A stretch of DNA of 64,000 nucleotides, taken from a virus. Its lineage: Duplodnaviria > Caudoviricetes. The notes beneath the pieces are model-generated. The model made no database searches. It was not told the DNA's origin and worked only from the letters and a program-made list of their open reading frames with translations. Shown piece after piece: positions 9,961 to 52,636 of the stretch (its first letter is position 1; each line of letters starts with the position of its first letter). Position numbers and translations under genes: made by a program. Where the stretch lies: IMG/VR virus record IMGVR_UViG_3300028833_000116, positions 1 to 64,000 of that record, one strand, 5' to 3'.

Positions 9961-10081
9961 CTTAAAATTCTTATAGATTTTAAAATTCAATTACAGGCTG
10001 TCTGATTTTATAGCCTATTAGTTAATCAATAACGAATAGTTATAAGGTCAGACGGCTTAAATTTAGGCAAATAGAAAGTTT
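9961..10081 (+). repeat. Structured ~115-bp dispersed element, copy A
   Basis: Core AGCCTATTAGTTAATCA at 10012; long hairpin at 9995-10058; AAATAGAAAGTTT at +57 from the core. Confidence 0.7.
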
Positions 10082-10128
10082 TTGGACAAGAAATCAAGTA
10101 AAAAAACATCATGGTAAATATTGATATT

Positions 10129-10272
10129 ATGGCTAAGAATAATAATAAAAATAATGCTAGACCAGCACAAAAGAGGATTAAAGATAGAGGTGTAGCTGCA
10201 CCTTCTATTCCTAAAGCTGGTTATACTAAACATCGTAGAAGATTAGAAGATGGAGGCAAAATTACAAAATAG
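10129..10272 (+). CDS. Small basic protein (47 aa, absent from the ORF track)
   Basis: MAKNNNKNNARPAQKRIKDRGVAAPSIPKAGYTKHRRRLEDGGKITK*; typical codon usage; overlaps the next gene. Confidence 0.6.
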   Translation: MAKNNNKNNARPAQKRIKDRGVAAPSIPKAGYTKHRRRLEDGGKITK

Positions 10273-10651
10273 TTTATATAAGATAGAACTTCATTGTATC
10301 AAAATAATTCCTATATTGATTGCAATTAATTCTTTTACTGATACTATTCTTTCATATTGTGGAATAGAAGGAAATATTCTATCTTATATTAATGGTTTAT
10401 TAGTTTGGTTATTCTTATACTTATCTTCATTTGTATTTAAATTTTGTTCTTATCATAGAATGTTTCTATATTATATTCTAGTTATTGGCATTATTAATGT
10501 AATAGACTATGAGATAGGTATTCCTCTTGGATTTAGAGATATGGTTGGTTTACAACTCATTCTTGCAGGTATTTTTATATTTACAACTTTATATCTTTAT
10601 AAACATGATAAGCTCCCCCGTAAAGGAAATTGTGGCAAACCTGCTGATTAA
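10250..10651 (+). CDS. Multi-pass membrane protein
   Basis: 133 aa with about four hydrophobic segments and an FKFCSYHRM motif. Confidence 0.7.
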   Translation: MEAKLQNSLYKIELHCIKIIPILIAINSFTDTILSYCGIEGNILSYINGLLVWLFLYLSSFVFKFCSYHRMFLYYILVIGIINVIDYEIGIPLGFRDMVGLQLILAGIFIFTTLYLYKHDKLPRKGNCGKPAD

Positions 10652-10895
10652 CTACGCTAATAAGATTAAAGATGGAACATCTAATATTACTATAGAAGAA
10701 TGTAGTAATATTCTTTCAGCTATTGCTCACATAGCTATGACAAAACCAGAAGTTTGTGAGTATCTTAATATTAGTAGAAGTACTTTTGATGATTTAGTTC
10801 TTAAAGGTAAACTTCCTAGAGGTAAGAAAGATAAACATCGTAATAATCTTGTTTGGTATAAAGATGAGATTATAAGTGCTATTGATAGTGCATAA
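10605..10895 (+). CDS. Helix-turn-helix (excisionase/AlpA-like) DNA-binding protein
   Basis: MTKPEVCEYLNISRSTFDDLVLKGKLPRGKK...LVWYK. The probable start is ATG 10605 (the ORF track starts at 10527). Confidence 0.75.
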   Translation: MISSPVKEIVANLLINYANKIKDGTSNITIEECSNILSAIAHIAMTKPEVCEYLNISRSTFDDLVLKGKLPRGKKDKHRNNLVWYKDEIISAIDSA

Positions 10896-10937
10896 GTTAC
10901 AGTTCTTCTACGGGGGAGCTTATTTGGTAATCCTTTG

Positions 10938-10978
10938 AGTCGTTAACTGCTTAATAGTTAGCGACTTATTTTATTTTT
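10938..10978 (+). terminator. Rho-independent terminator
   Basis: AGTCGTTAACT-N7-AGTTAGCGACT followed by TATTTTATTTTT. Confidence 0.7.
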
Positions 10979-10987
10979 CGGTAATGC

Positions 10988-11018
10988 TGTGAAAAACATA
11001 CATTTGTTAGTACCTTTG
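10988..11018 (+). promoter_or_regulatory. Bacteroidetes-type sigma promoter
   Basis: -7 box TACCTTTG (TAnnTTTG) at 11011 with TGTG 19 nt upstream; precedes the 319-aa gene. Confidence 0.6.
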
Positions 11019-11085
11019 CAATATCTTTTATAGCTATTAAAGATATAATTAACTTAGTTATTAACAAATTAAAATTCTTAAAACT

Positions 11086-12045: not shown

Positions 12046-12066
12046 ATATGGATAGGAGGTAAACGT

Positions 12067-12405
12067 ATGAATTGCTGCAATCAAATAATAGCAACTAATG
12101 CAGGTGGTATTCCATATATTCAGTCTACAAATACTATTATAGGCACAGAAAGTGTTAATATAGCATTAGGTAATCGTTGTCTTAAAGCAGCAGGATATAT
12201 TACTGTTATTATAACTAATCCTATTCCTGTTGATGCAACTGGAACCCTTCCTGTTAATTTAACTCTGAATGATGTTACTAAACCTTTGATGTTACCAAAT
12301 GGTACTCCAGTAACTGCTGCTGAGTTACTAAATGTAACTAATATTCTTATCTTTAATGATAGAACTAAAGGGTTGCTTACATTAATGTCTAGAACTGTGG
12401 ATTAA
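12067..12405 (+). CDS. Hypothetical beta-rich protein
   Basis: 112 aa starting MNCCN, preceded by GGAGG. Confidence 0.75.
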   Translation: MNCCNQIIATNAGGIPYIQSTNTIIGTESVNIALGNRCLKAAGYITVIITNPIPVDATGTLPVNLTLNDVTKPLMLPNGTPVTAAELLNVTNILIFNDRTKGLLTLMSRTVD

Positions 12406-12429
12406 TAATAACTTTAAAAATTAACAATT

Positions 12430-12927: not shown

Positions 12928-12930
12928 ATT

Positions 12931-13158: not shown

Positions 13159-13165
13159 TTAACTT

Positions 13166-13194
13166 GAGGGTGGTAGTCTTAGATTACTGCCCTC
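13166..13194 (+). terminator. Intergenic hairpin
   Basis: GAGGGTGGTAGTC-TTA-GATTACTGCCCTC. Confidence 0.55.
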
Positions 13195-25295: not shown

Positions 25296-28200
25296 ATGGA
25301 TATTAATGATTTGTTTATTGTCGGAGGTAAAAAAGTAAAAAATCCGAGATATAATAGGAGAACTAAAAATAAAGAACCTGAATATATAACTATTACAGAT
25401 GAAGGTTCTGGTAGTGTAATTTTAGATATCGCATCTAAAAATCCTTATTTTAATACTAGAATAGATGTTGATACGGAGAAATACAAAGATGCTGAAGACT
25501 ATGGAATAACTGTTACTCCTGGTAATATTGATAACATAGACTCTATGCTTGCGGAACATCAATCTAATTGGACTAAAGCTTTTAATGCTTTAGCCCAAAC
25601 TGTTGTATCTGAAATAGGTCTAGGTACTCTTAAAGGCTTTAGTGATTTATTCGACTTTGTAGTAGGTGGTGCGTTAAGATTATCAAATGGAGAACAAGAA
25701 AATGATTATTCTAATCCTGTATCAAAATTTCTAGAAAACCTTCAAGAAGATTTTAGAAAGGCTACTCCTATTTATGTAGAACCTGGAGTTTCTATAGACA
25801 ATGGAGGTCTTACTAATTTTGGTTGGTGGATGAGTAATCTACCATCAGTTGCTAGTTCTTTAACTCTTATGATTCCAGCTAGAGCTATGACTACTGGTGT
25901 AAGTAAATTAGGAAGTTTAGCTAAAGCTACTAATATTGGTCGTAGAGCAAGTGTTAATGGAAGAAGAATGCTTGGTAACATTGTAGGTGGTCAAACTAAT
26001 CTTAAGCGTCTTGAAACTATGGGTAAGTTTGGTGCCGAAGGTACTCTTATGCGTATAGCTGAAAACTATCAAGAGTCTAGACAAACCTATAATGAAATGT
26101 ATCCTCAAGCACTCGAAACATTAAACAATATGTCTGATGATGAATATCAATCTTATGTTGATTCACATAAAGAAATATTAGGAAATGATATAGATTATAA
26201 TAATAAAGAAGCTGTTGCTAAAAGAATATCTTCTTATTCTGCTGATGAAACTTTTAAAAGTGATATGTTAAATGCTGTGTTTGATATTTATCAGCTTTAT
26301 GGTTTAAGAAATATTGGTAGAATTATGAATGCTCCTGGTAGAGCATCTGTTAGAAGATTAGATAAACTTAGCAGAAAGTTTCCAAATAAATCTAAAGATG
26401 AACTTAAAGAAATACTTAATAAACGTAGTAAATTAAGAAAAGCTTGGGATTGGACAACTGATGCTGCTAGAGGAAGTGCTATTGCTATAACATCAGAAGC
26501 AAGTGAAGGTATAGAAGAAGCTGTAAACTATGCTGCTCAGCAAGAAGGTCTTAGTTATGGACAAGCTCTTTTAACACAAGGTCTTGATGAAGCTACAGGT
26601 AAATATAATCTTACAGATGAAGAAAAAGATGATTTAAAAAGAAAAGAATTCTTTAGTAAAGATAGAATTTTTCCATTTAGTAGACTTACTCAACAAGCAT
26701 TAGAAGATTATATAAAAGCACCAGAACTTCATGATGCTGCTTTTTGGGGAATTCTTGGTGGTATTACTTTTGGCGCAATGGGTTCTGGTGTTAATAAAAT
26801 ATCTCAAGCTTATAAAGCCTATAATACCAAAAAAGAATTACGTGAAGCTGGTGTTGCAGAAGAAGATATTCCTGATTATGTTACATTGATGCAAACACCT
26901 GAAATAGAAGCTCGTATAAATAATATCGAAAGTCGTTATAATAAATTTGAAGAACTTAAAAATAAGCTTAAAACTATAAATGATGACCATAAAGACCCCT
27001 TTAACAGTGATAGAGTTTTAGAAACAGAAGAAGAACGTGAAGTTGCTCGTAAGAGAGTTATAGAAGACCATGATATTAGTCTTCTTTTATCATCTATGGA
27101 TGTTGGTAACTGGGGTATTACAAAAGCTTATCTTGAATCTGATGGTGTAAGAGATGCTTTTGTTGAAGCTGGTATTATGAGTCAAGAAGAAGCTACACAA
27201 AGACAACAAGAAATTAAAACATTAGCAACAAAAGTTGAAAAACTTTATAATGATAATGTTAAAACAATAGATAATGCTTTAAGCAGATATAAAGATGATA
27301 ATACAGATTTAAGTGATATTCCTATCGAAACATTTGGAATTGTAGCTAGATTAAATATTACACATCAAATAGCTGCTGATAGATTAGCTGAAGATATAAA
27401 AAGATTAGAAAGTGATACTGGACAAGAAGAAGATAGAGTTAGAAAAGCTTTAGCAGATACTGGAATAGAAGTTAGAAAACTTGTAGCAGCTAGAATTCAA
27501 GCACAAGCTCTTGGTGAACTTATGGCTGAACGTAAAGAAGTAGCTAATAGTAAAGAAGCTTCAACATTAGATGGACAAATGCAACTTGATATGTTAGATA
27601 AAAAGATAGCTGTTGTAAAACAACAACTTTTATCTAATGTAGCAACACAAGAAGATTATGCTAGAGTAATAGATGCTTTCAGATTTGCAAGTGGTGTTAG
27701 GAAAAGAGATGACGATTATTATTTTGATGAATATGATGAAAACTTTAAGAAGATAGATGAAGCTATAAGAAATAATGATGTTAAAACTCTTAAAGAACTA
27801 GGTATTTTTGGTAATCTTCAAAATAATGCACCATACGATAATCTATTGCATTTAGTATCAGAAGATGGTACTGAATCAAATATAGATTTGAACACTATAA
27901 ATTCTGACTTACAACTTATAGATAATGCTTATGAAATTCTTTATAATACAGATAAAAATAGAACTATATCTAATCTTAAAGACATTTCAAAAAAGCTTGA
28001 TGAAAATTATCATAATTTGGCTGCACTTGAATTACAAAGAGAACTTGAATTACAGCAAATTGCTTTAACTAAAGAAGATGTAGCAAAAGAAGTTGATAGG
28101 ACAAATAATACTTTAACTTCTGTACGTCCAGCTCTTTTAAATCATGCTATGGAAGGTCTACAGCATCTTGCTAAAAAATATGGAAAAGAAGGTATTATAG

Positions 28201-35400: not shown

Positions 35401-38400
35401 AAGGTAATAATACAAATCATGGGCATTTAAATAGTATTTATCATTACGATGGCTCTGGAAAATTAGTTACTGGAGAAATTGGTAGTGAAAAGCTTACAGG
35501 TAAAGTATTTACTTCTGATAGATTTACAGTTTATGATAGCGTTAATAAAAAAATAATTAACTATGGTCAACAAATTATAGATGAAGCAATAGATTTCCTC
35601 TACGGGGGAGATATTCAGCGAGCGTTTATATTTGTAGAAACAGCTGAAGGAAAAGTTGAACCTAGAATTTCTCCTGAACTTGAAGCTAAAATTGAAGAAA
35701 AATTAAGTGCTTGGACTGATGCTTATATAGAATCAGCTAGAGAAAGATTAACACCTATGGCTGGATTTTTAAGAAGTGTTAGTCTTAATACTGACAATAT
35801 TACAGAATTTGCTATTAATCATCACCTCATGTATATTAATTTTAATGATATACTTGAAGGTGATACTAAGTTTTATAAAGATTCTCAAACATTTTTAAAG
35901 CGTGCTAAAGAATATCAAGGTTCTGGAGTTCCTTATGGTATTATGAACTATAAATTAGGTATTGATAATCTTATGCCTAATGGTCATATAGTAAGTGAAC
36001 TTGATAAATTTCCCGAAATCGGTATTTATCTTAGAACTAAATTTAAAGCTGTTACTATAAAAAATACAATAAAAACAGATGATGAAACTATTGATAGACT
36101 TATAGACCAACTTGTTGAAGAATCTGGTCTTTCAAGAGAAGCTGCTGAAACATTAATGAGAGGTCCTCTAAAGAAAGGCAAACGTAGTGGTGGTTTCCAA
36201 GAGGTTACTGTTAATGATGCTCAATCGTATATTACTTTTGATGAATGGGTTCGTCGTATAACTGCTCGTGGTCAATTCTATAAATATAAACATCTTATTG
36301 ATAAGATTCGTGACCCAAATAGTACAATTAGTGCTAAGGACATGGAAGAATTTGTTCAAGTTCAAAAGAATTTTTATTATGACCAACATTATAATAGTGA
36401 TACTAGAGTTATAGGTCCTCGTCAAATTAAAAATGCTGAATTTGTTATAGTTCCTAGATTTGTTCAAGGTACAGAACTTGAGAAAGTTTATGACTTAATG
36501 AAGAAATATGGTATTGACCAATTAAATACATCAGAAACTTCTAAAGCTTCTAAATCTTATGAATTAGAATTATTTGATTCTAATACTGGTCTTATGAAAG
36601 AAGATATTTTAGCAGAACTTGCAGATACAAGTGGTAAAACTAAAAGTAAATTTGGACAAGTTGTTAATGATGCTATTGAAGAATTCGACTATAATCATCT
36701 TTATACTCAACAAGAAACTCCACAACATATAGATGCCTCTAATAAAGCAGGTATTCAAATTATGAAGAAGATTCTTGATAATATTGATGAAAATAGTCCT
36801 CTTTATGATAAAAAGAATGAATTCTTTAGACTTTATTCTGCTAATATTAAAGAATCATTTACTAATCTTATGACAGAGTTTAATATTCCTTTAGATGCAA
36901 ATGGAAATATTAAACTTAATGAAGATGGAAGTATAGATGGTCTTAATTATGAAGTTTTTTATGAAAGACTTCAAGAAGAACTTGTTCGATTAGGACTTGA
37001 TAGCAACATGGCTGACTATGTAACTCTTGATGGTGTTACAGTAGGTAGTACAGTTATGCCAAATTATATGAGTCTTGTTGCTCAAAAGCTTGAAAATATT
37101 GCTCAAAGTCTTTTTAATAATAGAATTACTCGTCAGCTTCTTCCTGGTTTCCATGCTGCTCAAATTACTGGTGTAGGTTTTACATCTTTAGCTCAACAAG
37201 GAATTGAAAAGAAAGCTTATTCTGATAAACTTCGTTATCATCCTGTTGTTGATGGAAAAGTTCAACCTTATGTTGAAATAATGCTTCCTGCAGCAGCATT
37301 CGGTTTTGATATTAATAGTGAATCTTCTCAAGCTTTTATTGCAGCAGAAATTGCAAAAGGTAAAACTAAGGATGAAGCTGAACGTGCTCTTAAAGATTTT
37401 TGGCTTGAACAACTTAATAATAAAAAACTAGGAAATATAGGTACTATACTTGGTTATCGTATTCCTACTGAAGGTAAGCAATCTGTTTGTATTATGAAAG
37501 TTGTAGACTTTACTGACGATGCTCTTGGTTCTACAATTGTTGTACCAGATGCTTGGGTTGCACAAACAGGTTCTGATTTTGATATTGACTCTGTATATGG
37601 AATTCAATATAGTACATATATTGATAAAAATGGTATAATTCATAGACATGATTATAAGACTTCTAATGAACAACTTTATATGGATTATGTTCGTAGAAGT
37701 TTAGGTAAAGAAAGATGGAATGAAATATTTGAAACAGCTAGACTTGAAAAAGATGAAAAAGATGAAATAAAAGCTAAATTTACAGATGCTGAAGGCCATG
37801 TAGATTGGGAAGCTGTTAAAGCTAATATTAAAGCTGAAAGTCGTAAAATTCTTCAAGAAGAATTAATAAATGCTATTAATAGTAATCATCTAGAATCTTT
37901 TTCTGAATATAGTAAAAAGAGTGTAGAAGAACGTAACACTAAAAAAGCTAGAAATAATAAGATGTTAGATATTATGAAGGATATTCTTGGACATAAAGAT
38001 AGTCTTGAAGAAAATCTTTCTCGTTCTAATTTCGATGATATTCTTGATTCTTTCTCGAAAGTTCTTGATATTATGCCTGATTATGCTTCACAACGAGCAT
38101 CTCGTAGTCCATATAATTTCTTTGACCAAGCAGAATATATGGAAGATGCTATGAGTGGTGCTAAACTTAAAGCTTTTTCTGTAACTCGTGATACTTTCTG
38201 TTCTGTATGTAATACTGTTAAACCTACTCTTGCTAAAAATTCAGAACTTGAAATTATTTATGATTTTTCTAATCTTACAAAAGATGAATATCAAGCTAAA
38301 TTAAACACTATTAATGAAAATTTTGATAATGTTGCAGAAGTTGGTAATCAAAAAATTAAAGTTACTCATAAAACTTTTGGTTGGACTAAGAAAAATAAAA

Positions 38401-41400
38401 ATGTTGAAGGCAAAATATTAACTGCTTACTCTTCACAAACTACAGCTCATATTCTTGACGCTATTAAATCTGGTAATATACCTAACGTTAATGATTTAAC
38501 ATTTGCTGTTTATAAGACTTTTGTTGATGTAGGTAGTAATTATGATACTGCTATATCATTTATGATGCAACCAGGTGTTCGTAGAATAGTTGAAGCTTAT
38601 AATTCATCTAAATCTATTTATTCTGAAAACAATAGTAAGAATTATGTAGGTAGTGCTATAAGAAATATAGTTAAATCACTTAATCTTGATATATCAAAAA
38701 ATGCAACAATCGATGATATTCTTGCAGAGATAAATCATAAATATGGTGGTCTTATAAATAAACTATTTGGTACAAAAGGAGTTGTTTATACTCTTGAAGA
38801 AGAAGATATTGCTAAGATTCCATTTAATGTAGAGTTACAATTTAAACGACTTAGTAACGAATTAAGCTCCCCCGTAGAAGAGATTAGTAAAGATGAAGTT
38901 AATGCTATTTATGACTTGGCTATAGTTCTTCAGTATAATAAACTTAGCCTTCTTGCAAATCAAGTAGGAAGTGCTGCTAGAGTTTGTAATCCTGATAGAT
39001 TTGGAGCAAAACAATCTATTTTTGCTACAAATGATGTATTTACTTCTATTGAGGAATTAGCAACAGATGATACATTTAGACTTCTTGTAGGTAAAACAAA
39101 TCTTATAGATGCTATTTATCCTGGTGCGAGAAAAGGTGCTGAATCTTTTGCTACTCAAGATGATTCTAAGTTACCTAATCAGTCAGCATATCCATCATTA
39201 TTTGCTTTCTTAAAGTATGCAACTGCTACTAGTATTCTTGTTAATAGACAACTTTTTAAGACTCAAGAAAAAGATTTTGTTGATTATGTAATGTCTATCG
39301 AAGAAGTACTTAGTGATGATGCTAAAATTGACGAAAAGACAGCTAAAGAATTTCAAAATTATATAATTAATGCTCTTTATAGAAAGGTTAGGTTTATAAA
39401 TCAACCTCTTGTATATAAAACAGGTGTAGGCTTTGTTTATACTGAAAAAGATAATGAAGAGCCTAATCTTGCCGAACAAACAAGAATTTATGGTTATGGT
39501 CATACACCTGATTTAAGTCTTGACTATGAAGAAGAATCATATACATATGACGATAAAGGAGAATTAATAAAAAGAGAAGTTAAAGTTGTAAGACGTCCTT
39601 TCAGAGTTGAAAATCCTGCAAGTCCAACTAAGGATGAAATTAAAGATTTTGCTAGATTAAGTCCTGCTCAGAAAGTTGCTTATATTCAAGAACATTTTGC
39701 TACTAGAGGTATTTTTGATTACGTTAAGACTACATTATCTAATGATTATGCCACACGTAATACTCAAGCAGGTGCACAAACTCTCAGTTTCGATGAGGAT
39801 GCAATAGATGCTGAAACAAGGTATCAATTATTTTATGATAGTTTTACTAATAAAAATCCTCTTATTGCTTTGACTGCTGCTGACATAATAAAGTATGCTT
39901 TTGTAGTAGAAGGTTATAAAATGGGTATGCACAATGTATCTAAGATGATTAGTAACAAAGTTCTTGTAAGCACTAGTAAACTTTATGGTACTAATTTCAT
40001 TCAAGAAATGAATGAATTTATGGCTACTGTTGACAGTCAATTTACTGAACAGCTTAAAGAGAATTTTGTTAGAAGTCATTCTACTATGCAAGGTATTAAT
40101 CGTAGAAGTGTTCAAAAAGAAACAACTGGTGGTTATGAGCTTAAACAACGTGGTCAAGGTCTTATAATTATAGAAACTAATAAACAAGGTAAAGAACTTG
40201 CTGAAAAATATGGAATTATACATAGAGATAAAAAAGGTAAAGTTGATAAAGTAAATCAATATGTTGTATTAAAATTTGGTAAAAAGCCTACTTTATATAA
40301 AATTAAAGAACGTAGTGGATTAGGCTATGTATTAACTCCACTTAATAAACTTGAAGCTAATGAAAATGACGTTTGGAGTGTAAGGTCAGATAATAATATT
40401 TATCCTTATCTTGATAAAGATGGAAGTAATTATTATGACAATATTATATCTAAATATCAAGATGCTGTAACAGAAAAAAATATAAGTTCTTTTAGTGCTT
40501 CTGAACTAATGGAAGTTGGTCGTTCTATAGACACAGCTCCATATAAAGTTCAAAAAACTAAAAAAGTTAAAGGTCGTTATGGTGATGCTTTTAGAGTTAA
40601 TAAAGATGACCAGCTAGGAAAAATTCTTATAAAAACTGTAGGTAATTGGTTTGAAAATTCTGTTAAGGATAATAAACCTGCTTGTTATTTGATAAATAAT
40701 TCTCTTGGACAATTTATTAAAACTTTTGGTCCTGAAGGTTCTATTATAACAAGCGTACCTGTCTTTGAAATAAATGAAAAAGGAGAAGAAGTTCTTAAAT
40801 ATAAAGTTCCTGTTAAAATAACTAAGAAAAATGTTAAAAGTTTAATGTGGACTTATGTTAAAGAAAAAGGTGCTCTTGATAGACCTGCTCCAAAAGGAAA
40901 AGAAGATTTAGTTGCTGTTCTTCGTAATTTCTCTGCTGGTCATGAACAAACTATGCAAACGAATTTGGATAATGTTTATGAAATTACAACTACAGAACAA
41001 CAAGTAGACCCTGGTGCTGAAGTTATGTTCTCTACTATAGATGATGTAATAGGACAAGGAGTTCAAACTATAAATCGTAGAGCTTATAGACAAGAAGATG
41101 TTGCTGCTAGAAAAATAGCAAAACGCTGGGAAACTGAAGGTACTGTTGCAAGTGATGAAAATAAAAAGAAAAATACTACTGAAATTGTAGTAGAACTTGC
41201 TAAATATGCTACAGATACAGCTAGAGAAATTAATAAATCTTTAACTTCATTTATAGAAGACCCTGACAATCCTAATCATTATCTTAGTATAGTAGATGAT
41301 AAAACATTGAAACTTGTTAAGAAAAATCCTGAGATTCGTAGACTATTCCTTAAAACTATTATGGAACCTCATGCTTTTGCTCAACAATTTAGTATGATTA

Positions 41401-44400
41401 AAGAACTTGATATGGATTCTGCTGATACTCGTACTAGAATGTATCTAGAACGTATTAAACAAGCAGTTGACCAAGTTGAAAATGCATCTATTATAGCTAC
41501 AGCTAGAGAAAAATATATTCATGAATATATTGATAAAATTTCTGATAATCCTCTTGTTAGACACGGTCTTATAAGTGTTATTGATGGTTTTTATAAAACA
41601 AATTTCTTAAATGCTTGGTTTAACGATATTCAAGAAACATCTAATGGTCTTATACAAGTTACAATGAAAAATGTAATGAGAGATATTAGAGCTCAAGAAA
41701 TGGAAGCTAGAAGAGCTATAGATAAATTTGTTAAAAACATTGATGCTATAAAAGCAGAAGCTAAAGCTAATGGAAAAGAATTTAATTTTTCTCATATTAT
41801 AGATGAATATGGAAGATTTATTCAAGATTATAATGAGAAGTTTATAGAAGATAGAGATAGATTACAAAAAGCTGCTCAAGATGCTAAAATCAAAGCTAAT
41901 GATATTGCAAAAGAAAAAGGTAAAGATAATAACGAATATATCAAAGCACAAGTAGACTGGCTTAGACGTCGTCTTGAATATAATGAATGGAAAGCTAAAT
42001 ATGTTCATCAACCTGTTGTTCAAGAATATTATGATAAAATAAATGCTTTAGAACGTAAGATTCTTTTCGGTGAACCTACTCGTGATGAAGAAACAGGTAA
42101 GATAGAATATCTTGGTGCATCTCCTTATATTTATGCTATGTATCAAACTCTTCGTGAAGAAAGAGTTGAAACTAGAAATCAATTTATAGATGATGCTGAA
42201 GACCCTGAATTAGATGCAAAACTTGATGAATTAGACATTGCTATTAGAAATCTAACTTCTGATTATATAACAAATCCTACTACAGGAATAATAGAAGAAA
42301 AAATTGATTTTGAATTTGAGGCTAAAGACGAAGATGAAATGATTAATAGAGCTAGACTTAGTCTTACAGCAGCTAATCGTTTAAAGAAATTCATAGACTC
42401 TCGTAAAGATTTAGAAGAACAATATTTTAAATATGACCCTGTATATAATTTTAATGAAGAAGTAGAACGTTATCAAGCTATTATAGATAAAGCAGAACGT
42501 CGTGATGCTAATGATATTCCTCAAGCTAGTGAATATGAACTTACTAATAATGAAGAATATCAAAAAGCTAGAATATGGCTTCGTAGAAATGCTATAAGAC
42601 AACCTATTATAGATGATGAAAATGATTGGTATAATGAGCTTAAAGCTGCATATGAAGAACTTCATGATGATGATAAATCTTTAGATTACGGTAAAAGATA
42701 TTATGATATAATTCATAATGATAAGTATAAAGATGAACTTGGTCAAGTTAATCCTATGCTTTTATCTAAAGAAGATTTAGAAAAGCTTAAAACAGCTCAA
42801 GAAACTAATTATAAACTTAAGAAAGAAAATCCATATAGTGATAGAAATCTTCTTAGTAATAAAGCTAAAGATGAGAAAATAGTTTATACTTCTGCTTTCT
42901 ATAGAGGACTTAGTGGAATTCCAGCTCCAAGTGCTACTCAAAAAAGTGCTAATCCTGAATGGCAAAAAACTGTTACAGATATTAATAATCTTCTTGCGCC
43001 TTATTATAGTGAATCTACTCAATCTATTTTATTTAACAAAATTATAGAAGAACCAAATGCTGAAGAAATTCTAGAAAAACTAGGAAATCTTTATGATAAA
43101 CTTCATAGTTTTGCTGATGAGAAACGTAAAGATAAAAGTAGAGCTAAGAGAAAACAAGTTAGAGAATTTGTAGAAAAGAATGTAGAATTTGTTACAAATG
43201 AAGATGCTCTTGAAGCAGACAAAAGACTTCTTGATGTTAAAAAATCTCGTATTAAAACATTACTTAACAATGTTATGTACGAAATAGGTTACGATGGTAA
43301 TCGCAAACCTAATAGATTCTTATATCAAACTGTTTCTCTTAAACTTAAAAATAAAAATTCTCTTGAACTTTATTTAAAAGATGATAGAGATATAGATAAA
43401 ACTATTGATAAAGAAGATTTTAACAAGCTTAAACAGTTTGTAGATAGGAAAAGAACTAATGCTATTAGGACTATTGAAAAATATACGTATCAACGTCCTT
43501 CTAGACATTATTACACTGCAGAAGCTGAAGCTAGAACTGGTAGGAATTTATTTGGTTATAGTAGCTATAAAGAATGGTTTACTGCTAATCATATTTATAA
43601 TCCAAATACTAATCGTTTTGAACCTCTTAAGATTTGGATGGTTACTTCTTATAAGGAAAGTCTTAAACATAAATGGAGTCCTAAATTTCCTCAACAAATT
43701 CGTACTGTTCGTGATGGTTATTATGATACAGCCCATTATGGTCCTATAGATGTTGAAGATATTGAAGCTTCAAAAGAATATCATGAAGAAATAGACTTCC
43801 GTAATAAAGAGTATAAACCAGATGGTGGTCATAGACTTAATTACAGAAAAGGAGTAAATAAAGAATATGATGCTAAAATAGATGCTAACGAATATGAACT
43901 TAAAGCCGCTAAATTAATGCAAGATGTTTGTATGGCTCTTGCTCACGAAACTAGTGCTAAAAAATACTTTGAACAAGGTTGGCTTCCTAGTAAAGCTAGA
44001 CATGGTGAAAGAGGTGCTGAATTCTGGAAAGATGAAATGCTTAAAACTTTTGGTTGGAATGAATCAGCTACAGGTTATGAAGATTGGTATAAAAATATAG
44101 ATTATTATAAAGATAAAGCTCCTTCTATGCCTATGCTTTCTAAACTTAAAAATAAATATATTGAAGAGAAGAAAAAAGAATTAGGTAGTAGACCTGTTAG
44201 AAAAGCTGGAGAAAGTGAATCTGATTACATCGCCCGTAAAAAGAGATGGGATGAGATGTATAAAGAGTATCAAAAAGAAGAACTTAAAGTTCAAAAAGAA
44301 TTACTTGAAGGTGACCCTGTAAGAGCTATTTCAGAATTTATTCTAAAAGCTAGTCATTATAATGCTATTCAAAATAATAAATATGAACTCTTCTTTGCTC

Positions 44401-46286
44401 AACAAGCACTTCGTAAATATGGTGTTTATCAAAGACGTTATACTGTAACTGGTTCTCTTAATGTAGATAGACTTGCATCAACTGATGAACAAGCTGCTTA
44501 TGTTAAAGAACTTGATGATAATCTTATACAGCAATTTGATAATCAAATTAGACGTCTTGTTTATGACCAATGGAAGATGCCAAATGCCAAATTGACAAAA
44601 TGGATGAGTGTACTACAGTCATTTACTTCTGCTAAATACATGATGATGAATGTAAAAGGTGGTATTGCTAACGTTACTCTTGGTGAATCTCAGATTTTAG
44701 CTGAAGCTTTTGCTAGAGAATACTTTAATGTTAAACAATGGGCTAAAGGTAAAGGTTTGTATCTATCTGCTATGTATGATTTTATTGCAAATGCTTATAG
44801 TGAAAAATCTTCTACTCTTCAAGGTGCAATTATTAAGTTCTTTGACGTTATTGATTACGATGAACATACTGGATTAGGACATATTAATACTGACCCAGCT
44901 GTTATTCTTGAACGTATTCGTAATGCAGGTTATACTCCTCAAACATCTGGTGAACATTTTATGCAAAATAGTGCTCTTCTTACAATGATGAAAAGTCATA
45001 AAGTTGTTGCCAATGAACGTGCTGGAGAATTTGGACAACCTGCTTTTAAAATTATTAATTTTGAAGAATATGTTAGAGATGCTAATGAAGATGCACTCAA
45101 AGCTATTGTTAAACCAGAAGTCTGGGCAAAGTATCAAAAACGTGTAGAAGAAATATCTTCCGATGCTAATCAAATGAAAGAATTTGCTTGGTTTAGAAAA
45201 GATATGACTGATGAATTTGCTAAATCTTTCTTAAGTGTAGAAGAACGTAAAGCTCTTGTTAAGAAAAAGAATGCTATTCGTAAGGAGGCTAAAGATAAAT
45301 TTAATAAACTTCCTGATGTTTATAGTCAAGTAGAACTAGATAAAACTACAGGTAAGATGGCTTTCAAAGCTGGTAGTTTATTAGCTAGTATAGATGAAGC
45401 TAAGTCTGATGGTTCTGCAACTGATGCTATGCAACTTGTAGCTAACTTCAAAGGTCGTGTGATAGCTGTTAATAAGAAAATACACGGTGTGTATGACAAA
45501 ACAGGTAGAGCACAAGTTGAAAGTGGTAATGGATTTGGTGGTCCTCTTGGTGCTTTAATTATGCAATATCATAAACATCTTCCTGTTGGTATAATGAAAC
45601 GTTATAGAGTTAGAGGAATGTTTAATGAAGAAAGAGGTACTGTTGAAAAAGGTGTCTATACTTCTATTATTGACTTCCTTTCAGTTCCATTTAAACGTCA
45701 TCAAGAAATGTTAGGTCTTACTGATAAAGAAGTTAAAGCTGGTATAGGTGTTCAAAATATATTAAAGAATGTTTTGAATTTCATTGCTCATCCAGTTCTT
45801 AATTATGAAGAAATGCCTGAATACGATAAAGCTAATTTAAGACGTTCCTTTGGTGATGTTGTAGGAGCACTTGGTGCATTACTTTTAGTAATAGCTATAA
45901 AAGCTGCTGGAGGAGATGATGACGATGATGTATGGTATAATTTAGCTCTTTATGAAGCAGACCGTCTTTCTACTGAGGCTACTGAATACTTCCCACTATT
46001 TGCTCCTGCTGCTGCTAAAAAACTATGGACAACTCCTATTGCTGGTATGAATGTTATTAATGATGTAATGATGTCTGTACAATTTATAAGTCAATATCTA
46101 TTTGACCCAGACTTTGATAATACTTACAAAACAGGTAAATATGCTGGTAGAGATAAAATTGCAGTACGTCTTGAAGGTAACATTCCAATTTGGAGAGGTA
46201 TTAAGAGTAGCTTTGTTGATATTTCTGAAAATAATAAATATTACAAAGTAGGAGGTAACTTACTTACTATTGTAGGTGCAAACTAA
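32406..46286 (+). CDS. Virion-packaged DNA-dependent RNA polymerase (crAss-type giant polyprotein)
   Basis: 4626 aa with the catalytic QTGSDFDIDS (DxDxD at 37575-37589), GYRIPTEGKQS and LRIPSDAPK motifs. Confidence 0.85.
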   Translation: MNGCVSGIDINANKALIELQKMCGTNVSQFYRYIGKVVKSTTTTGSLEFEDEFKTWWKDTAKMKSELDINNTNPTTLKNKIVQYFEETAATFEAGVRKSTGFDKVGLFGYDSIATRELGKRLFANRMILHFHKLQTQGIKVENPFIACATEAIDVFRNLLADKLEEYKGINGDEAYDALVDNCATYLNSIIKEDDNYQLRMLASLYKEIISTPVEENDTNARAEFLKEVMRDSRLGVIRDLNAKDKDFEAIDIAAQEDAINDPNVNPEDTSQEATFNVSIRVYNEHGGIYTNYMTHVSQSIKALLDSIPKLNDYNYAANEPDYNLDNAFGIPDVYNANEIASILYHYGEYDDVYYMIESIDEIAKSIPGYAGLKLLADKLRANRDLAFDFYRTFGKAVISKLETVVEGEGAESRRSNQTSSKGEVLRYTFVNHLKSTAIRLDLDFAKAELGMLKLQLGTKQLTEDREADKFIHDLYVQLRTFYPSITENAISRFVKNNKIKGVVNRRKNFDQLTRILNNTIESSNLIKDKYDELQAARSSAYYKNKRLEIENAETPGLHSPEEFENLDPLYSISYVSKENQQPCVELADALLKYTPVRTNLNSRNVHGNQSSDVINNSMITNLMHTFESVLNNPDDYGNISDNSPLMRFAQHKFQSQQYDHGNLLLEKKDENGKIINYGLFYRDKDGKIKPTTYARQLLQFSLFNGASNLDDGTNVLYNEMSRGDYIGTAWINFFHEDSIDVDGAKISVAQYFLRIPSDAPKTFTLRAPKYDAKGFRTVINQREINQAIADEINKVTDKFFASNNVLFGDKPITGYRKDKPWTNDDLLKHIRFDGKGKFTIPTGLRKNSKFKNGEVVTVALAYNVNVENSDEPQQVYYAISGTYNDGVLENANFEGFAREGFTEDIYIELRAALNNELKRTGEVNGVKEQYRVNTKHQLFRQMRSSFVQELQDAATALDVMFERKELTKAQKQKLGIPENVKAFTVARERGTHELKFKKGNNTNHGHLNSIYHYDGSGKLVTGEIGSEKLTGKVFTSDRFTVYDSVNKKIINYGQQIIDEAIDFLYGGDIQRAFIFVETAEGKVEPRISPELEAKIEEKLSAWTDAYIESARERLTPMAGFLRSVSLNTDNITEFAINHHLMYINFNDILEGDTKFYKDSQTFLKRAKEYQGSGVPYGIMNYKLGIDNLMPNGHIVSELDKFPEIGIYLRTKFKAVTIKNTIKTDDETIDRLIDQLVEESGLSREAAETLMRGPLKKGKRSGGFQEVTVNDAQSYITFDEWVRRITARGQFYKYKHLIDKIRDPNSTISAKDMEEFVQVQKNFYYDQHYNSDTRVIGPRQIKNAEFVIVPRFVQGTELEKVYDLMKKYGIDQLNTSETSKASKSYELELFDSNTGLMKEDILAELADTSGKTKSKFGQVVNDAIEEFDYNHLYTQQETPQHIDASNKAGIQIMKKILDNIDENSPLYDKKNEFFRLYSANIKESFTNLMTEFNIPLDANGNIKLNEDGSIDGLNYEVFYERLQEELVRLGLDSNMADYVTLDGVTVGSTVMPNYMSLVAQKLENIAQSLFNNRITRQLLPGFHAAQITGVGFTSLAQQGIEKKAYSDKLRYHPVVDGKVQPYVEIMLPAAAFGFDINSESSQAFIAAEIAKGKTKDEAERALKDFWLEQLNNKKLGNIGTILGYRIPTEGKQSVCIMKVVDFTDDALGSTIVVPDAWVAQTGSDFDIDSVYGIQYSTYIDKNGIIHRHDYKTSNEQLYMDYVRRSLGKERWNEIFETARLEKDEKDEIKAKFTDAEGHVDWEAVKANIKAESRKILQEELINAINSNHLESFSEYSKKSVEERNTKKARNNKMLDIMKDILGHKDSLEENLSRSNFDDILDSFSKVLDIMPDYASQRASRSPYNFFDQAEYMEDAMSGAKLKAFSVTRDTFCSVCNTVKPTLAKNSELEIIYDFSNLTKDEYQAKLNTINENFDNVAEVGNQKIKVTHKTFGWTKKNKNVEGKILTAYSSQTTAHILDAIKSGNIPNVNDLTFAVYKTFVDVGSNYDTAISFMMQPGVRRIVEAYNSSKSIYSENNSKNYVGSAIRNIVKSLNLDISKNATIDDILAEINHKYGGLINKLFGTKGVVYTLEEEDIAKIPFNVELQFKRLSNELSSPVEEISKDEVNAIYDLAIVLQYNKLSLLANQVGSAARVCNPDRFGAKQSIFATNDVFTSIEELATDDTFRLLVGKTNLIDAIYPGARKGAESFATQDDSKLPNQSAYPSLFAFLKYATATSILVNRQLFKTQEKDFVDYVMSIEEVLSDDAKIDEKTAKEFQNYIINALYRKVRFINQPLVYKTGVGFVYTEKDNEEPNLAEQTRIYGYGHTPDLSLDYEEESYTYDDKGELIKREVKVVRRPFRVENPASPTKDEIKDFARLSPAQKVAYIQEHFATRGIFDYVKTTLSNDYATRNTQAGAQTLSFDEDAIDAETRYQLFYDSFTNKNPLIALTAADIIKYAFVVEGYKMGMHNVSKMISNKVLVSTSKLYGTNFIQEMNEFMATVDSQFTEQLKENFVRSHSTMQGINRRSVQKETTGGYELKQRGQGLIIIETNKQGKELAEKYGIIHRDKKGKVDKVNQYVVLKFGKKPTLYKIKERSGLGYVLTPLNKLEANENDVWSVRSDNNIYPYLDKDGSNYYDNIISKYQDAVTEKNISSFSASELMEVGRSIDTAPYKVQKTKKVKGRYGDAFRVNKDDQLGKILIKTVGNWFENSVKDNKPACYLINNSLGQFIKTFGPEGSIITSVPVFEINEKGEEVLKYKVPVKITKKNVKSLMWTYVKEKGALDRPAPKGKEDLVAVLRNFSAGHEQTMQTNLDNVYEITTTEQQVDPGAEVMFSTIDDVIGQGVQTINRRAYRQEDVAARKIAKRWETEGTVASDENKKKNTTEIVVELAKYATDTAREINKSLTSFIEDPDNPNHYLSIVDDKTLKLVKKNPEIRRLFLKTIMEPHAFAQQFSMIKELDMDSADTRTRMYLERIKQAVDQVENASIIATAREKYIHEYIDKISDNPLVRHGLISVIDGFYKTNFLNAWFNDIQETSNGLIQVTMKNVMRDIRAQEMEARRAIDKFVKNIDAIKAEAKANGKEFNFSHIIDEYGRFIQDYNEKFIEDRDRLQKAAQDAKIKANDIAKEKGKDNNEYIKAQVDWLRRRLEYNEWKAKYVHQPVVQEYYDKINALERKILFGEPTRDEETGKIEYLGASPYIYAMYQTLREERVETRNQFIDDAEDPELDAKLDELDIAIRNLTSDYITNPTTGIIEEKIDFEFEAKDEDEMINRARLSLTAANRLKKFIDSRKDLEEQYFKYDPVYNFNEEVERYQAIIDKAERRDANDIPQASEYELTNNEEYQKARIWLRRNAIRQPIIDDENDWYNELKAAYEELHDDDKSLDYGKRYYDIIHNDKYKDELGQVNPMLLSKEDLEKLKTAQETNYKLKKENPYSDRNLLSNKAKDEKIVYTSAFYRGLSGIPAPSATQKSANPEWQKTVTDINNLLAPYYSESTQSILFNKIIEEPNAEEILEKLGNLYDKLHSFADEKRKDKSRAKRKQVREFVEKNVEFVTNEDALEADKRLLDVKKSRIKTLLNNVMYEIGYDGNRKPNRFLYQTVSLKLKNKNSLELYLKDDRDIDKTIDKEDFNKLKQFVDRKRTNAIRTIEKYTYQRPSRHYYTAEAEARTGRNLFGYSSYKEWFTANHIYNPNTNRFEPLKIWMVTSYKESLKHKWSPKFPQQIRTVRDGYYDTAHYGPIDVEDIEASKEYHEEIDFRNKEYKPDGGHRLNYRKGVNKEYDAKIDANEYELKAAKLMQDVCMALAHETSAKKYFEQGWLPSKARHGERGAEFWKDEMLKTFGWNESATGYEDWYKNIDYYKDKAPSMPMLSKLKNKYIEEKKKELGSRPVRKAGESESDYIARKKRWDEMYKEYQKEELKVQKELLEGDPVRAISEFILKASHYNAIQNNKYELFFAQQALRKYGVYQRRYTVTGSLNVDRLASTDEQAAYVKELDDNLIQQFDNQIRRLVYDQWKMPNAKLTKWMSVLQSFTSAKYMMMNVKGGIANVTLGESQILAEAFAREYFNVKQWAKGKGLYLSAMYDFIANAYSEKSSTLQGAIIKFFDVIDYDEHTGLGHINTDPAVILERIRNAGYTPQTSGEHFMQNSALLTMMKSHKVVANERAGEFGQPAFKIINFEEYVRDANEDALKAIVKPEVWAKYQKRVEEISSDANQMKEFAWFRKDMTDEFAKSFLSVEERKALVKKKNAIRKEAKDKFNKLPDVYSQVELDKTTGKMAFKAGSLLASIDEAKSDGSATDAMQLVANFKGRVIAVNKKIHGVYDKTGRAQVESGNGFGGPLGALIMQYHKHLPVGIMKRYRVRGMFNEERGTVEKGVYTSIIDFLSVPFKRHQEMLGLTDKEVKAGIGVQNILKNVLNFIAHPVLNYEEMPEYDKANLRRSFGDVVGALGALLLVIAIKAAGGDDDDDVWYNLALYEADRLSTEATEYFPLFAPAAAKKLWTTPIAGMNVINDVMMSVQFISQYLFDPDFDNTYKTGKYAGRDKIAVRLEGNIPIWRGIKSSFVDISENNKYYKVGGNLLTIVGAN

Positions 46287-46389: not shown

Positions 46390-46450
46390 ACTAATAACTA
46401 AAAACCTAAAACTATTTTTATGAATTACACATTATTTAGTTAAGACCTAA

Positions 46451-46570
46451 CTTAAATTTTTTGTGTTTTATTTTATTCAATTTGAGGCTTTCTATTTTTC
46501 AGCTTATTAGTTAATCATAAAGCTATTAAAAACGCAGTAGAAGGCAAGCAAACTACTAAATAGAAAGTTT
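46451..46570 (+). repeat. Structured dispersed element, copy C
   Basis: Core AGCTTATTAGTTAATCA at 46501; stem GCTTTCTA/TAGAAGGC; AAATAGAAAGTTT at +57, identical to copy A. Confidence 0.7.
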
Positions 46571-46571
46571 A

Positions 46572-46847
46572 TTAGTAACCATCGGGCAAAATAACTTTGC
46601 CAAACTGGTCATGTCTAACTGTAACATCATCACTATCAATAACCTCAATAGTAAGACGAGCATCAAGAATAGAATCAACAGTAGTAACAAGCTGTCTATG
46701 ATACATTTCTTCTACGGGGGAGCTAGTTACTCCATTTACTACTACTAATTTTAAACCATAATAGCATATAACAAGAGGAATTATTAGAATTGTTATTGCT
46801 ATAATAAATCTTATAATATGGTCTAATATTTTATAAAGTATATTCAT
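46572..46847 (-). CDS. Small membrane protein
   Basis: 91 aa with an N-terminal hydrophobic helix. Confidence 0.65.
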   Translation of the reverse strand: MNILYKILDHIIRFIIAITILIIPLVICYYGLKLVVVNGVTSSPVEEMYHRQLVTTVDSILDARLTIEVIDSDDVTVRHDQFGKVILPDGY

Positions 46848-50122: not shown

Positions 50123-50125
50123 AAT

Positions 50126-50311: not shown

Positions 50312-50585
50312 AATCGTGTTCGTAATCAGAAGTCATAACTACAATATCATAAATAGCATCATATAATGGATGCATATCACCATAAAAAGCACTATCTTCT
50401 TCTATACATTTATCATGTTTATCTATATATTTATTAAATATTCCTGTAGAACGAATACGAATATCATGCAAAAGCTGTTGCTCAGAAAAATCTTTAGCAG
50501 CATAAGCTTTCTCACGCTCAATAAAACAAATAGCAATACTAATAATAGCAATAATTAATACTATTGTAGAACAAATAATAATCAT
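50283..50585 (-). CDS. Membrane-anchored hypothetical protein
   Basis: 100 aa with an N-terminal hydrophobic helix. Confidence 0.65.
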   Translation of the reverse strand: MIIICSTIVLIIAIISIAICFIEREKAYAAKDFSEQQLLHDIRIRSTGIFNKYIDKHDKCIEEDSAFYGDMHPLYDAIYDIVVMTSDYEHDYDSDKDLQS

Positions 50586-50586
50586 A

Positions 50587-50823
50587 TTATATCTTATATT
50601 TTAATTCACCTTTAACTTTAATTGATAACCTAGTATCAATAATTTTCAAATCAGAACCTGGAAATTTTTCGTTAAGAACATCTACAAGTTCTTCAAGACA
50701 GTCAACAGCTGCACGTCTATATTCTTGAGATTTGTCAAGTCCTATAGCAGTTAAACAAATAGCTGCTGTACTAATAAGAATAGTTACACTAAAAATAATA
50801 GCTGCAATAATAATTACACTCAT
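50587..50823 (-). CDS. Membrane-anchored hypothetical protein
   Basis: 78 aa with an N-terminal hydrophobic helix. Confidence 0.65.
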   Translation of the reverse strand: MSVIIIAAIIFSVTILISTAAICLTAIGLDKSQEYRRAAVDCLEELVDVLNEKFPGSDLKIIDTRLSIKVKGELKYKI

Positions 50824-51002
50824 CTTCTATAATAATTATCTAAATAAACTGGAGTTTCTTTAATCTTACCACAATTGGTACAACGAGAGATAATAGTAGT
50901 TCCTACTACAACACCATAAGGATTTTTAATATCCTTCTTTTCAAGAACTTCATAATGATGAAGTCCGATGATACATTTAAAATCTTTACTCATAACAAAC
51001 AA
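50820..51002 (-). CDS. Small Cys/His (zinc-ribbon-like) protein
   Basis: CIIGLHHY...RCTNCGK. Confidence 0.65.
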   Translation of the reverse strand: MFVMSKDFKCIIGLHHYEVLEKKDIKNPYGVVVGTTIISRCTNCGKIKETPVYLDNYYRR

Positions 51003-51940
51003 CGTTTAATAAATTCTTCTTTTAAAGGTTTAGCAAGTAATGCAGCATTAGGATGAGGAGGACCTGAAACACCATCTGCTCTTAAAGCAAAGAAATGTTT
51101 CCAATCATCTACAAAAGCAGTGTGAATAAGTTGAGTCTTAGTAGAAAGAGGAAGAACTTCTCTAGCTTGTTGAGGTTTCCAGCCTTTTTTAATAAGACCA
51201 TTATAACAAAATTCAGCAACTGTAAGACTAAATAGATAATAATCTATATCACACCACTGTGTATCTCTAGCTTCTAAATAATCATCACAATAAGTAACAA
51301 GTTTATCAAATTGATGACTTTCTACATATGGAAGATTTTCTTCATTTAAAAGCCAAGCAGGAAGTCCAATCTTAATCTGACCATCATTATGCTTATTATA
51401 ATTACAATATCTAGTACTTTCTTCTGCAATAGAATTAACTCTGTGACGATTAAATTCACGAGTCACACCTATATTAGTTGTAAAAGAAACAGTAACTCTT
51501 TTAGCATGATGTTCAGTTGGAGTACAAATATATTTAAGGTCAGCAAGCCAATTATGTTCTATAAGAACACGAAGATTAGTTGTTACGTAAGACCCTGGAT
51601 TATCGTCATAGATATAATTTTCTTTAGAATGAGGATTATTACAATAATGCTTTATAACTTCTGGTAATCTAGTATTAACATCATCTAGCCAAGGAATAAA
51701 TAGATAAACAGTTCCATGTTCAAGCATAGCACCATGAATCTTATCAATATCAAGCTCCCCCGTAGAAGATATTTGCCTTAGAATAACTCTTTTAACAAAA
51801 TCTTCTTTAGTTTCATTATCAGATTTCTTTTCAGATTGATAACAAACACGAGTACATCTAGCAATATGAGCATACATTCCTTCTACGGGGGAGGTAGTAT
51901 CTTGTTCCCATATTTCAAAGTTTGGTCTAATTAGTTCCAT
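50990..51940 (-). CDS. thyX: FAD-dependent thymidylate synthase
   Basis: ARCTRVCY, HGAMLEH, REFNRHR...ESTRYC and QQAREVLP motifs. Confidence 0.92.
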   Translation of the reverse strand: MELIRPNFEIWEQDTTSPVEGMYAHIARCTRVCYQSEKKSDNETKEDFVKRVILRQISSTGELDIDKIHGAMLEHGTVYLFIPWLDDVNTRLPEVIKHYCNNPHSKENYIYDDNPGSYVTTNLRVLIEHNWLADLKYICTPTEHHAKRVTVSFTTNIGVTREFNRHRVNSIAEESTRYCNYNKHNDGQIKIGLPAWLLNEENLPYVESHQFDKLVTYCDDYLEARDTQWCDIDYYLFSLTVAEFCYNGLIKKGWKPQQAREVLPLSTKTQLIHTAFVDDWKHFFALRADGVSGPPHPNAALLAKPLKEEFIKRCLL

Positions 51941-52277
51941 TTTTATCTGTATTTAAATAGTTATAGGTCATAATTGCATAACAAGCTAAATCGAGAAGAG
52001 TATCATTAATACTTTCATCTCTAACTTGAGGTTTATCAAAAGGATTAAGATTTGTAAGAGTAATTATACGATTCATTTTATCATATAATCGTCCTATACC
52101 ATAAGCAGTACCAATAATTTCCATTCCTTTATTAAAAGAATTACCATAATCATGATTTTTCCTAGCATAAAGGTTACACATATTTGCACAGGTCTTAGCA
52201 AAAGCTAATACTTCATGCGTTGTAAGTTCTTCTGGAATTCTAAAATCAAGAACAAAATCTCTACTATCCTCTACCAT
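51927..52277 (-). CDS. Nucleotide-modification-associated domain protein (DUF1599/Nmad1-like)
   Basis: RKNHDYGNSF...RLYDKMNR...ESINDTLLDLACYAIM. Confidence 0.85.
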   Translation of the reverse strand: MVEDSRDFVLDFRIPEELTTHEVLAFAKTCANMCNLYARKNHDYGNSFNKGMEIIGTAYGIGRLYDKMNRIITLTNLNPFDKPQVRDESINDTLLDLACYAIMTYNYLNTDKNGTN

Positions 52278-52476
52278 TGTTTTCTAGTTTAAAATAAGTA
52301 TTAATAACGTTACGAGTAACGTTAAGTAATATAGTCCCAATATGAAGCATTTGCACTTTAGATAGTTCTAAAACATTAACATCTTCATCATTTATTAAAA
52401 TTCTAATAGCAAAGCCATTATCTTGTTCCATAACTTTAGTATGGATAATCTGTATTTCTATATCTTCCTTATTCAT
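52264..52476 (-). CDS. Hypothetical protein
   Basis: Probable start MNKEDIE at 52476, directly downstream of a -7 box. Confidence 0.55.
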   Translation of the reverse strand: MNKEDIEIQIIHTKVMEQDNGFAIRILINDEDVNVLELSKVQMLHIGTILLNVTRNVINTYFKLENNGRG

Positions 52477-52480
52477 ATTA

Positions 52481-52526
52481 CAAAGATAATAAATTATTTT
52501 AAAATACAAGAATTTTAAGTGTTAAA
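52481..52526 (-). promoter_or_regulatory. Bacteroidetes-type promoter
   Basis: TATCTTTG on - strand at 52488-52481, CTTG 18 nt upstream, TTTAACA 38 nt upstream. Confidence 0.6.
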
Positions 52527-52636
52527 TTTTTCAGACATTTTTAACGTTTCTGACGAGATAATTTTGCCAGCTTATTAGTTAATCATCTGACATATAAAAA
52601 TGCTCTGACAAGGCTAAAAAGTGGCAAATAAAGAAA
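52521..52636 (+). repeat. Structured dispersed element, copy D
   Basis: Core AGCTTATTAGTTAATCA at 52569; GGCAAATAAAG with AAATA at +57. Confidence 0.65.

Follow-up and report, generated by a model that had tools for sequence, protein, structure and literature searches.

Six co-oriented elements defined by five sequence blocks recur at orthologous sites in crAss-like phage genomes, one of them written through a protein-coding gene

The early promoters of phage N4, which are read by a virion RNA polymerase (RNAP), are hairpins with stems of 5-7 bp and loops of 3 nt that lie close together near one end of the genome, ahead of early genes; in cluster A mycobacteriophages, stoperators are oriented consistently with respect to transcription and consequently flip between the genome arms; and known nick sites are short words. 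Single-strand origins (sso) and single-strand initiation signals (ssi) start RNA primers on one strand. In the crAss-like phage phi14:2, the virion RNAP transcribes single-stranded DNA and hardly any double-stranded DNA; its early transcripts have no known common motif upstream, and two intergenic regions account for the most abundant of them (preprint 10.1101/2020.03.07.982082). Here we describe a family of DNA elements in the crAss-like phage record IMGVR_UViG_3300028833_000116 (91,933 bp; labelled G000), whose nearest named relatives belong to the Crassvirales, family Intestiviridae; the window that was analysed is the first 64 kb (64,000 nucleotides) of this record. The family has six copies of about 150 bp in the 91.9-kb genome, all of them on the + strand.

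The genome is divided into a + strand gene block, which runs from ~76.6 kb across the record ends to 46.3 kb and carries the virion genes including homologues of gp45 and gp44 of prototype crAssphage (p-crAssphage), and a - strand block of replication and early genes from 46.6 to 75.4 kb. Within the window, copy A (9942-10095; 82.9 bits with nhmmer) is intergenic in the + block of virion genes; copy B (28413-28536, core at 28471-28487) lies in frame within the low-complexity central linker of a protein of 2366 amino acids (aa); copy C (46431-46588, core at 46501-46517, 91.5 bits) occupies a 285-bp gap where the + and - gene blocks converge; and copy D (52498-52656, core at 52569-52585, 97.9 bits) lies between two - strand genes and is antisense to both, with a DNA ligase gene nearby. 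Beyond the window, copy F spans genome positions 67616-67762 and copy E positions 87619-87775, with its core at 87688. The orientation of the elements stays constant across the switch in transcription direction, as a preliminary description of the window had pointed out for its four copies, and the finding of six syntenic copies in several genomes strengthens that claim.

Five sequence blocks, set at fixed distances from one another, define the family, which has no conserved fold. Its general plan is a tandem pair of TTAAAATTC-type boxes, separated by about 20 bp, together with the core GCTTATTAGTTAATCA and two further blocks, GCAACACAG and GCAAATAGAGC. Read in + orientation, box I is AACTTAAAATT, and box II, about 20 bp further on, is TTTTAAAATTCGATTT(C/G)AG, which makes the two boxes a tandem direct repeat; the core GCTTATTAGTTAATCA comes after approximately 19 nt of variable sequence 3' of box II, block IV (ACGCAACA(C/G)AG) lies about 17 nt past the core, and block V (GCAAATAGAGCATTT) about 24 nt past block IV. 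In copy A, these blocks are found at 9958-9970 (box I), 9978-9996 (box II), 10012-10028 (core) and 10066-10078 (block V). The core of this genome is a near-invariant 16-bp sequence, box II is nearly restricted to the elements and rare elsewhere in the genomes, and the internal blocks are better conserved than the arms around them. Several sequence features first noticed in the window were recovered: an upstream T(T/C)AAA(A/T)TT box was seen in the window copies, AAATA(G/A) follows at exactly +57 in all four, and the A-B and B-C spacings are 18459 and 18030 nt. A degenerate 17-mer has exactly four matches in the window, all on the + strand, at 10012, 28471, 46501 and 52569, where shuffled sequences are expected to give 0, a post hoc figure, since the pattern was fitted to the same data. 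Copies B and D also exceed the shuffled control that the preliminary description had called for: 60 versions of the genome with local dinucleotide shuffling reached 9.9 bits at best. A small open reading frame (ORF) within the elements was ruled out; the core has stops in all frames of both strands.

The same six sites are found in two complete related genomes. G001 (89.7 kb) carries six of six copies on one strand; in G003 (91.4 kb), five copies were recovered with a hidden Markov model (HMM) and copy B through exact matches to box II and block V, again all on one strand. Judged by their flanking genes, these copies occupy sites A to F in the same orientation as in G000. Among genome fragments, G007 carries D and F, and G008 carries A and E, in agreeing orientation; all copies thus lie on a single strand in G000, G001, G003, G007 and G008. 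Copy A has syntenic counterparts in G001, G003 and G008, and copy C in G001, G003 and the loci L114 and L121. Metagenome loci fetched via the ligase gene, which cover sites C and D, gave 21 matches, every one in the same orientation relative to the ligase gene; at site D, 13 relatives have the element in this orientation beside the ligase gene at E < 1e-10, and others match more weakly. With the family HMM, A-site elements were not detectable in 50 further relatives, and the recognisable family is therefore narrow. A more distant branch is represented by p-crAssphage (BK010471.1), with five diverged and more palindromic copies at 5.1, 19.6, 26.4, 52.8 and 86.2 kb; by position, the 19.6-kb copy beside the ligase gene is site D, and the 86.2-kb copy between portal and gp75 is site E.

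Outside the phages, one genome for each of 185,579 prokaryote species yielded no convincing member; the seven pattern matches came from unrelated taxa, the best of them at 5.7 bits (E 0.26). A gapped pattern from box II to block V gave three chance matches only in IMG/VR, and the single exact-core match there, L006, was rejected as chance: it comes from an unrelated phage of higher GC content, in which the word overlaps a stop codon. A literature search for a described crAss intergenic repeat or non-coding RNA returned nothing relevant, and no description of the element family was found in Rfam or the papers searched. The family consists of old, phage-private, cis-acting DNA sites at six orthologous places in one orientation. 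This pattern bears on the notion that the elements are decayed small palindromic mobile elements without present function, similar to miniature inverted-repeat transposable elements. Such an origin would account for AT-rich sequences of about 100-150 bp with imperfect inverted repeats and several copies per genome; it is highly improbable for copies that are orthologous and fixed across genera instead of polymorphic, whose internal blocks are conserved more than their arms, which lack a convincing member among the prokaryote genomes, and which include an in-frame copy that was preserved while its stop codons were edited out.

This in-frame copy B sits in the first of two giant genes. The 2366-aa protein gene (25296-32396, + strand) is a homologue of p-crAssphage gp45, which is annotated as 'RNAP associated protein' (BLASTP E 7e-62); residues ~771-1354, with copy B among them, fall outside the aligned segments. 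It is followed by the gene of a 4626-aa virion RNA polymerase (32406-46286, + strand), a homologue of p-crAssphage gp44 (BLASTP 775 bits, 33% identity across 1785 residues with the catalytic region covered) that carries a DFDID motif, compared to DFDVD in gp44. A PHROGs search with both giant proteins assigned no family. Together, the two genes form 21 kb without intergenic space.

The preliminary description had placed one copy inside this coding sequence (CDS), and the copy is genuine: an HMM built without B recovers it at 24.5 bits (E = 4e-6), and it is found at about the same residue in three genomes, where boxes I and II fall, according to their coordinates, at residue ~1048 in G000 and G001 and residue ~1061 in G003, in a protein that is only 28-31% identical between the three. 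Read in the frame of copy B, the family consensus would put TAA stops into both boxes and the core. None of the three B copies has these stops: box I has CAA, box II has CAA and TCA, and the core has CAA or a rewritten sequence, while the remainder of boxes I, II and V is retained; copy B departs from the consensus mainly where TAA stops needed removal, and its core is the least conserved block among the B copies. Within the B window, identity at third codon positions is 0.60-0.67, compared to gene-wide means of 0.47-0.51; two of the comparisons rank this window 5th to 8th of 187, and the remaining one ranks it 40th of 212. Copy B represents a DNA-level constraint superimposed on a disordered linker. 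A template/variable repeat pair of a diversity-generating retroelement was considered for the similarity of A and B and rejected; the differences are mostly T to C changes at stop codons and do not fall at adenines.

The preliminary description had taken the four window copies for structured RNAs or single-strand hairpins in which the apex is conserved and the stems covary. Strong palindromes do exist: copy A has arms of about 25 bp (fold z -6.9), and comparable palindromes are found in A of G003 (z -7.5), in F of G003, and in the p-crAssphage copies at 5.1 and 26.4 kb, in which arms of about 20 bp surround a GTGAT/ATCAC mini-hairpin with z of -5.2 to -6.0 on either strand. The remaining three p-crAssphage copies are weak palindromes, and the database relatives of the p-crAssphage copies, at least 93% identical, are too alike for covariation analysis. 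An intrinsic terminator was considered for the palindromic copies and rejected, the T-runs being part of the stem, with an A-run after the stem on both strands. Arm complementarity is clearly significant (P = 0.003) in three of 26 copies (A of G000, A and F of G003) and nominally so in B of G001 (P = 0.013), and it is not significant in copies B (P = 0.23), C (P = 0.10) and D (P = 0.26) of G000. The Fisher combination of the + strand arm P values over 23 copies treated as non-redundant gives ~1e-4; arm complementarity is thus enriched overall, and the loose palindromic tendency across copies is real.

A shared structure did not emerge from these palindromes. Across 26 family members, RNAalifold returns 0 consensus pairs; the copy A stem pairs in 40.1% of cells, compared to a shuffled mean of 40.9%, and slid registers are equally good; the stems, where they are found, occupy differing registers. 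No conserved helix of at least four columns at 75% pairing or more was found, a screen directed at short stem-loops of the N4 type. Single-sequence folds range from z -7.5 to +0.9 with many copies near 0, and the B and E copies have no stable fold (z -0.7 to +0.7), B of G001 being the only one of them whose arms are nominally complementary. The G-U preference proposed for the + strand was not seen; mean fold z is -1.4 on the + strand and -1.3 on the - strand, so that both strands fold alike and an extensive conserved single-strand fold is absent. Rfam has no match in the window at gathering scores and nothing on the elements at four element loci at E up to 5, and a search for tRNA and tmRNA found none. 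Of the expectations attached to the hairpin proposal, homologues in related phages were found and significant covariation was not. The conserved-structure interpretation is largely refuted, and we consider it improbable that structured RNA or single-strand hairpins define these elements. The family may instead descend from an imperfect palindrome, the arms of which decayed in most copies of this clade as the blocks were kept.

The placement of the copies provides a different line of evidence. Gaps between successive copies measure 18.5, 18.0, 6.1, 15.1, 20.0 and 14.3 kb, a spacing more even than that of six random points on a circle (largest gap of at most 20.0 kb, P = 0.003; coefficient of variation 0.30, P = 0.007). 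The A-to-C interval contains the giant-gene pair, and B lies at 0.51, 0.53 and 0.50 of this interval in three genomes. An orientation that ignores local transcription, an even spacing of no more than 20 kb, and a copy placed in the sole 21-kb stretch without intergenic DNA together suggest that a phage factor reads the elements in the course of a genome-wide process with a single direction.

Our favoured reading, held tentatively, is that RNA or primer synthesis on one strand might start at the elements in such a one-way process; it draws on the tandem polar boxes, on the residual palindromy, and on the published single-strand preference of a crAss-like virion RNAP without a known promoter motif. 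Synthesis starting at the elements, possibly by a virion-type RNA polymerase that prefers single-stranded DNA, could have a part in complementary-strand replication or in DNA entry driven by transcription; each site would owe its polarity to the tandem direct-repeat boxes, and the palindromic arms of some copies and of p-crAssphage would aid local unwinding. Extended to the group, and with the same reserve, this would mean that crAss-like phages of the Intestiviridae perhaps maintain around the genome a relay of some six polar sites for starting or docking, no more than 20 kb apart; where giant genes leave no intergenic DNA, one site would be written into a protein linker, and the relay would serve polymerase-driven DNA entry or complementary-strand priming by a virion-type RNA polymerase. 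We know of no phage for which such a relay of polar sites has been described.

Several points weigh against start sites. The function of the elements is pure inference from sequence. Orientation and spacing amount to one evolutionary observation, as the sites are orthologous across the three genomes, and the two-sided chance that six of six copies share an orientation is 1/16 (1/32 for a given strand). A consistent hairpin that would mark a single-strand signal is missing, and a putative primase of the phage may make dedicated priming sites unnecessary. Copies in the replication block (D and F; the 5.1, 19.6 and 26.4-kb copies of p-crAssphage) lie directly upstream of genes. The copies of p-crAssphage are unevenly spaced (14.5, 6.7, 26.4, 33.4 and 16 kb), and one of the five, at 52.8 kb, is flipped relative to the other four, which agree in orientation. 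Versions are weaker in more distant genomes: in G004 (IMGVR_UViG_3300045988_056679), an HMM of its own finds only four copies, co-oriented and with a differing core, TGATAAATCTATC; G002 shows, with the family HMM, only a weak A-site match (E 0.03) and a weak A-to-C similarity.

Some of these points would be expected if the elements were local gene-regulatory sites, that is upstream operators, activator sites or 5'-leader modules, with orientation and spacing due to inheritance and chance. At copy D, a canonical host-type promoter of the - strand gene starting at 52476 (52481-52526, - strand) comprises TTTAAC at 52526-52521, CTTG at 52510-52507 and TATCTTTG at 52488-52481, in the arrangement CTTG-N18-TATCTTTG, with TTTAAC 38 nt upstream of the -7 box and the ATG just 5 nt past it, which implies a leaderless or near-leaderless mRNA. 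This promoter abuts and overlaps box I of copy D, the overlap involving its TTTAAC upstream element. A - strand ORF starts right next to box I of copy F; the p-crAssphage copies at 5.1, 19.6, 26.4 and 52.8 kb lie about 5-100 bp from a gene start on their box side, the 52.8-kb copy being flipped in line with its gene; and the palindromic core of TGATTAATC type resembles a site for a dimeric protein. Yet the elements have no consistent relation to local genes. On the box side or strand, there is no gene at copies A, B, C and E or at the 86.2-kb copy of p-crAssphage, with B inside a CDS; at copy E, box I follows a + strand terminator, and 190 nt separate block V from the local + promoter beyond it, so that the host-type promoters local to D and E stand on different sides of the element. 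The promoter at D is separate from blocks II-V. None of the 17 genome-wide matches to the host-type promoter TTTG-N17-23-TAnnTTTG falls within blocks II-V of any copy, box II reads TCnATTT(G/C), unlike a host-type promoter, and block V reversed (TCTATTTG) lacks the A at position 2 and a -33 box at the proper distance. Local regulation fails to account for copies A, B, C and E, and it leaves unexplained the even spacing and the copy embedded near the midpoint of the longest gene-only stretch; we regard it as conceivable, though doubtful.

Hairpins of a different kind border two copies. At genome positions 87602-87650 (L005 ~1416-1465, beyond the window), a hairpin with a T-run lies directly before copy E and recurs at the same site in G001 and G003, in the variants GTCCTAG...CTAGGAC, GTCCTG...CAGGAC and GTCCTTA...TAAGGAC, with compensatory changes between the genomes; it is probably the intrinsic terminator of the upstream + operon. 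In the window, a hairpin AGCCCTACC...GGCAGGGCT at 52643-52668, followed by a T-rich run on the - strand, is probably the terminator of the - strand gene that ends at 52675, with its T-tract overlapping block V of copy D.

A polar role on the scale of the genome need not involve a synthesis start; the elements might act as sites of specific single-strand nicks, as in T5 or phiKMV-like phages, as pause or checkpoint sites in ejection or packaging, or as anchors for loops of about 15 kb. These roles would fit few copies on one strand, independent of transcription, evenly spaced and tolerated within a gene, with a 16-bp near-invariant core in this genome. We judge them unlikely: nick sites would not call for five blocks conserved over about 150 bp, conservation among the B copies is lowest in the core, and we know of no evenly spaced packaging or ejection signals of this kind in any phage. 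Start sites for one-strand synthesis remain our provisional preference.

Four side observations concern these genomes and p-crAssphage. A GC-rich word with a G-run, TCTACGGGGGAG, has 29 copies on both strands, mostly within genes (for example at 2325, 10907, 28905 and 46711); a link to the elements was considered and rejected, as the word is not tied to them save for one degenerate copy 84 nt after copy E, and it is a separate system. A gene-free gap of 1.25 kb at genome positions 75365-76615 (beyond the window), flanked by the divergent - and + blocks, contains two TTTG...TAnnTTTG matches on the - strand and is a candidate control region, origin or genome end. In G004, G000-type cores (GCTATTAGTTAATCA, TTTATCAGTTAATTATCA) are found at ~37188-37257 and at a second site near its E copy, in reverse orientation and thus opposed to that genome's own co-oriented family; two sub-families, or a palindromic core, may confuse orientation calls. 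Finally, p-crAssphage BK010471.1 carries a second, unrelated and partly self-complementary repeat family (27957-28321, 95632-96137, and at ~44.9, 58.7, 93.6 and 6.0 kb), two members of which sit in the gaps adjoining the two RepL genes.

In the gut of humans and animals, few viruses are more abundant than crAss-like phages, and it matters how their DNA enters the cell, what their injected giant RNA polymerase recognises, and where their replication starts; the elements, which are conserved, constant in strand and evenly spaced, provide concrete, mutable targets for work on these questions, with recognisable relatives in the prototype crAssphage and one copy important enough to persist inside a gene. 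Copy B shows, in addition, that a disordered protein linker can also carry a DNA signal. In this respect, copy B resembles the lambda origin in gene O, and pac sites in terminase genes, where a cis-acting site runs through the flexible linker of a coding gene; lambda, however, has one origin, placed in its own initiator gene, whereas copy B is one of six dispersed copies and lies in the gene of a protein associated with the virion RNAP.

Among signals that start synthesis, the sso (such as the ssoA type of rolling-circle plasmids), the ssi and Frpo of the F plasmid are similar to the elements in being non-coding, about 100-200 nt long and strictly orientation-dependent, and in combining short conserved motifs with variable, partly self-complementary segments between them. 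They differ in acting via an extensive conserved fold of single-stranded DNA, which is not conserved in the elements, and six evenly spaced copies in a 92-kb double-stranded DNA phage genome are not their known setting; their signature motifs are not evident in the element alignments, although no search was aimed at them. The early promoters of the N4 virion RNAP belong to a phage of comparable life style that likewise injects a giant RNA polymerase, and they are co-oriented, strand-specific signals; the elements, in contrast, have no conserved short hairpin, are spread round the genome, and in half of the cases face away from any gene. The nick sites of T5 and of phiKMV-like phages are likewise few per genome, lie on one strand whatever the direction of the genes, and can fall within genes; they are short consensus words, whereas the elements consist of five conserved blocks across about 150 bp. 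The stoperators of cluster A mycobacteriophages, finally, are similarly dispersed, asymmetric and intergenic, with many sites recognised by one phage protein; they are 13 bp long, and unlike them, the elements of this phage do not flip.

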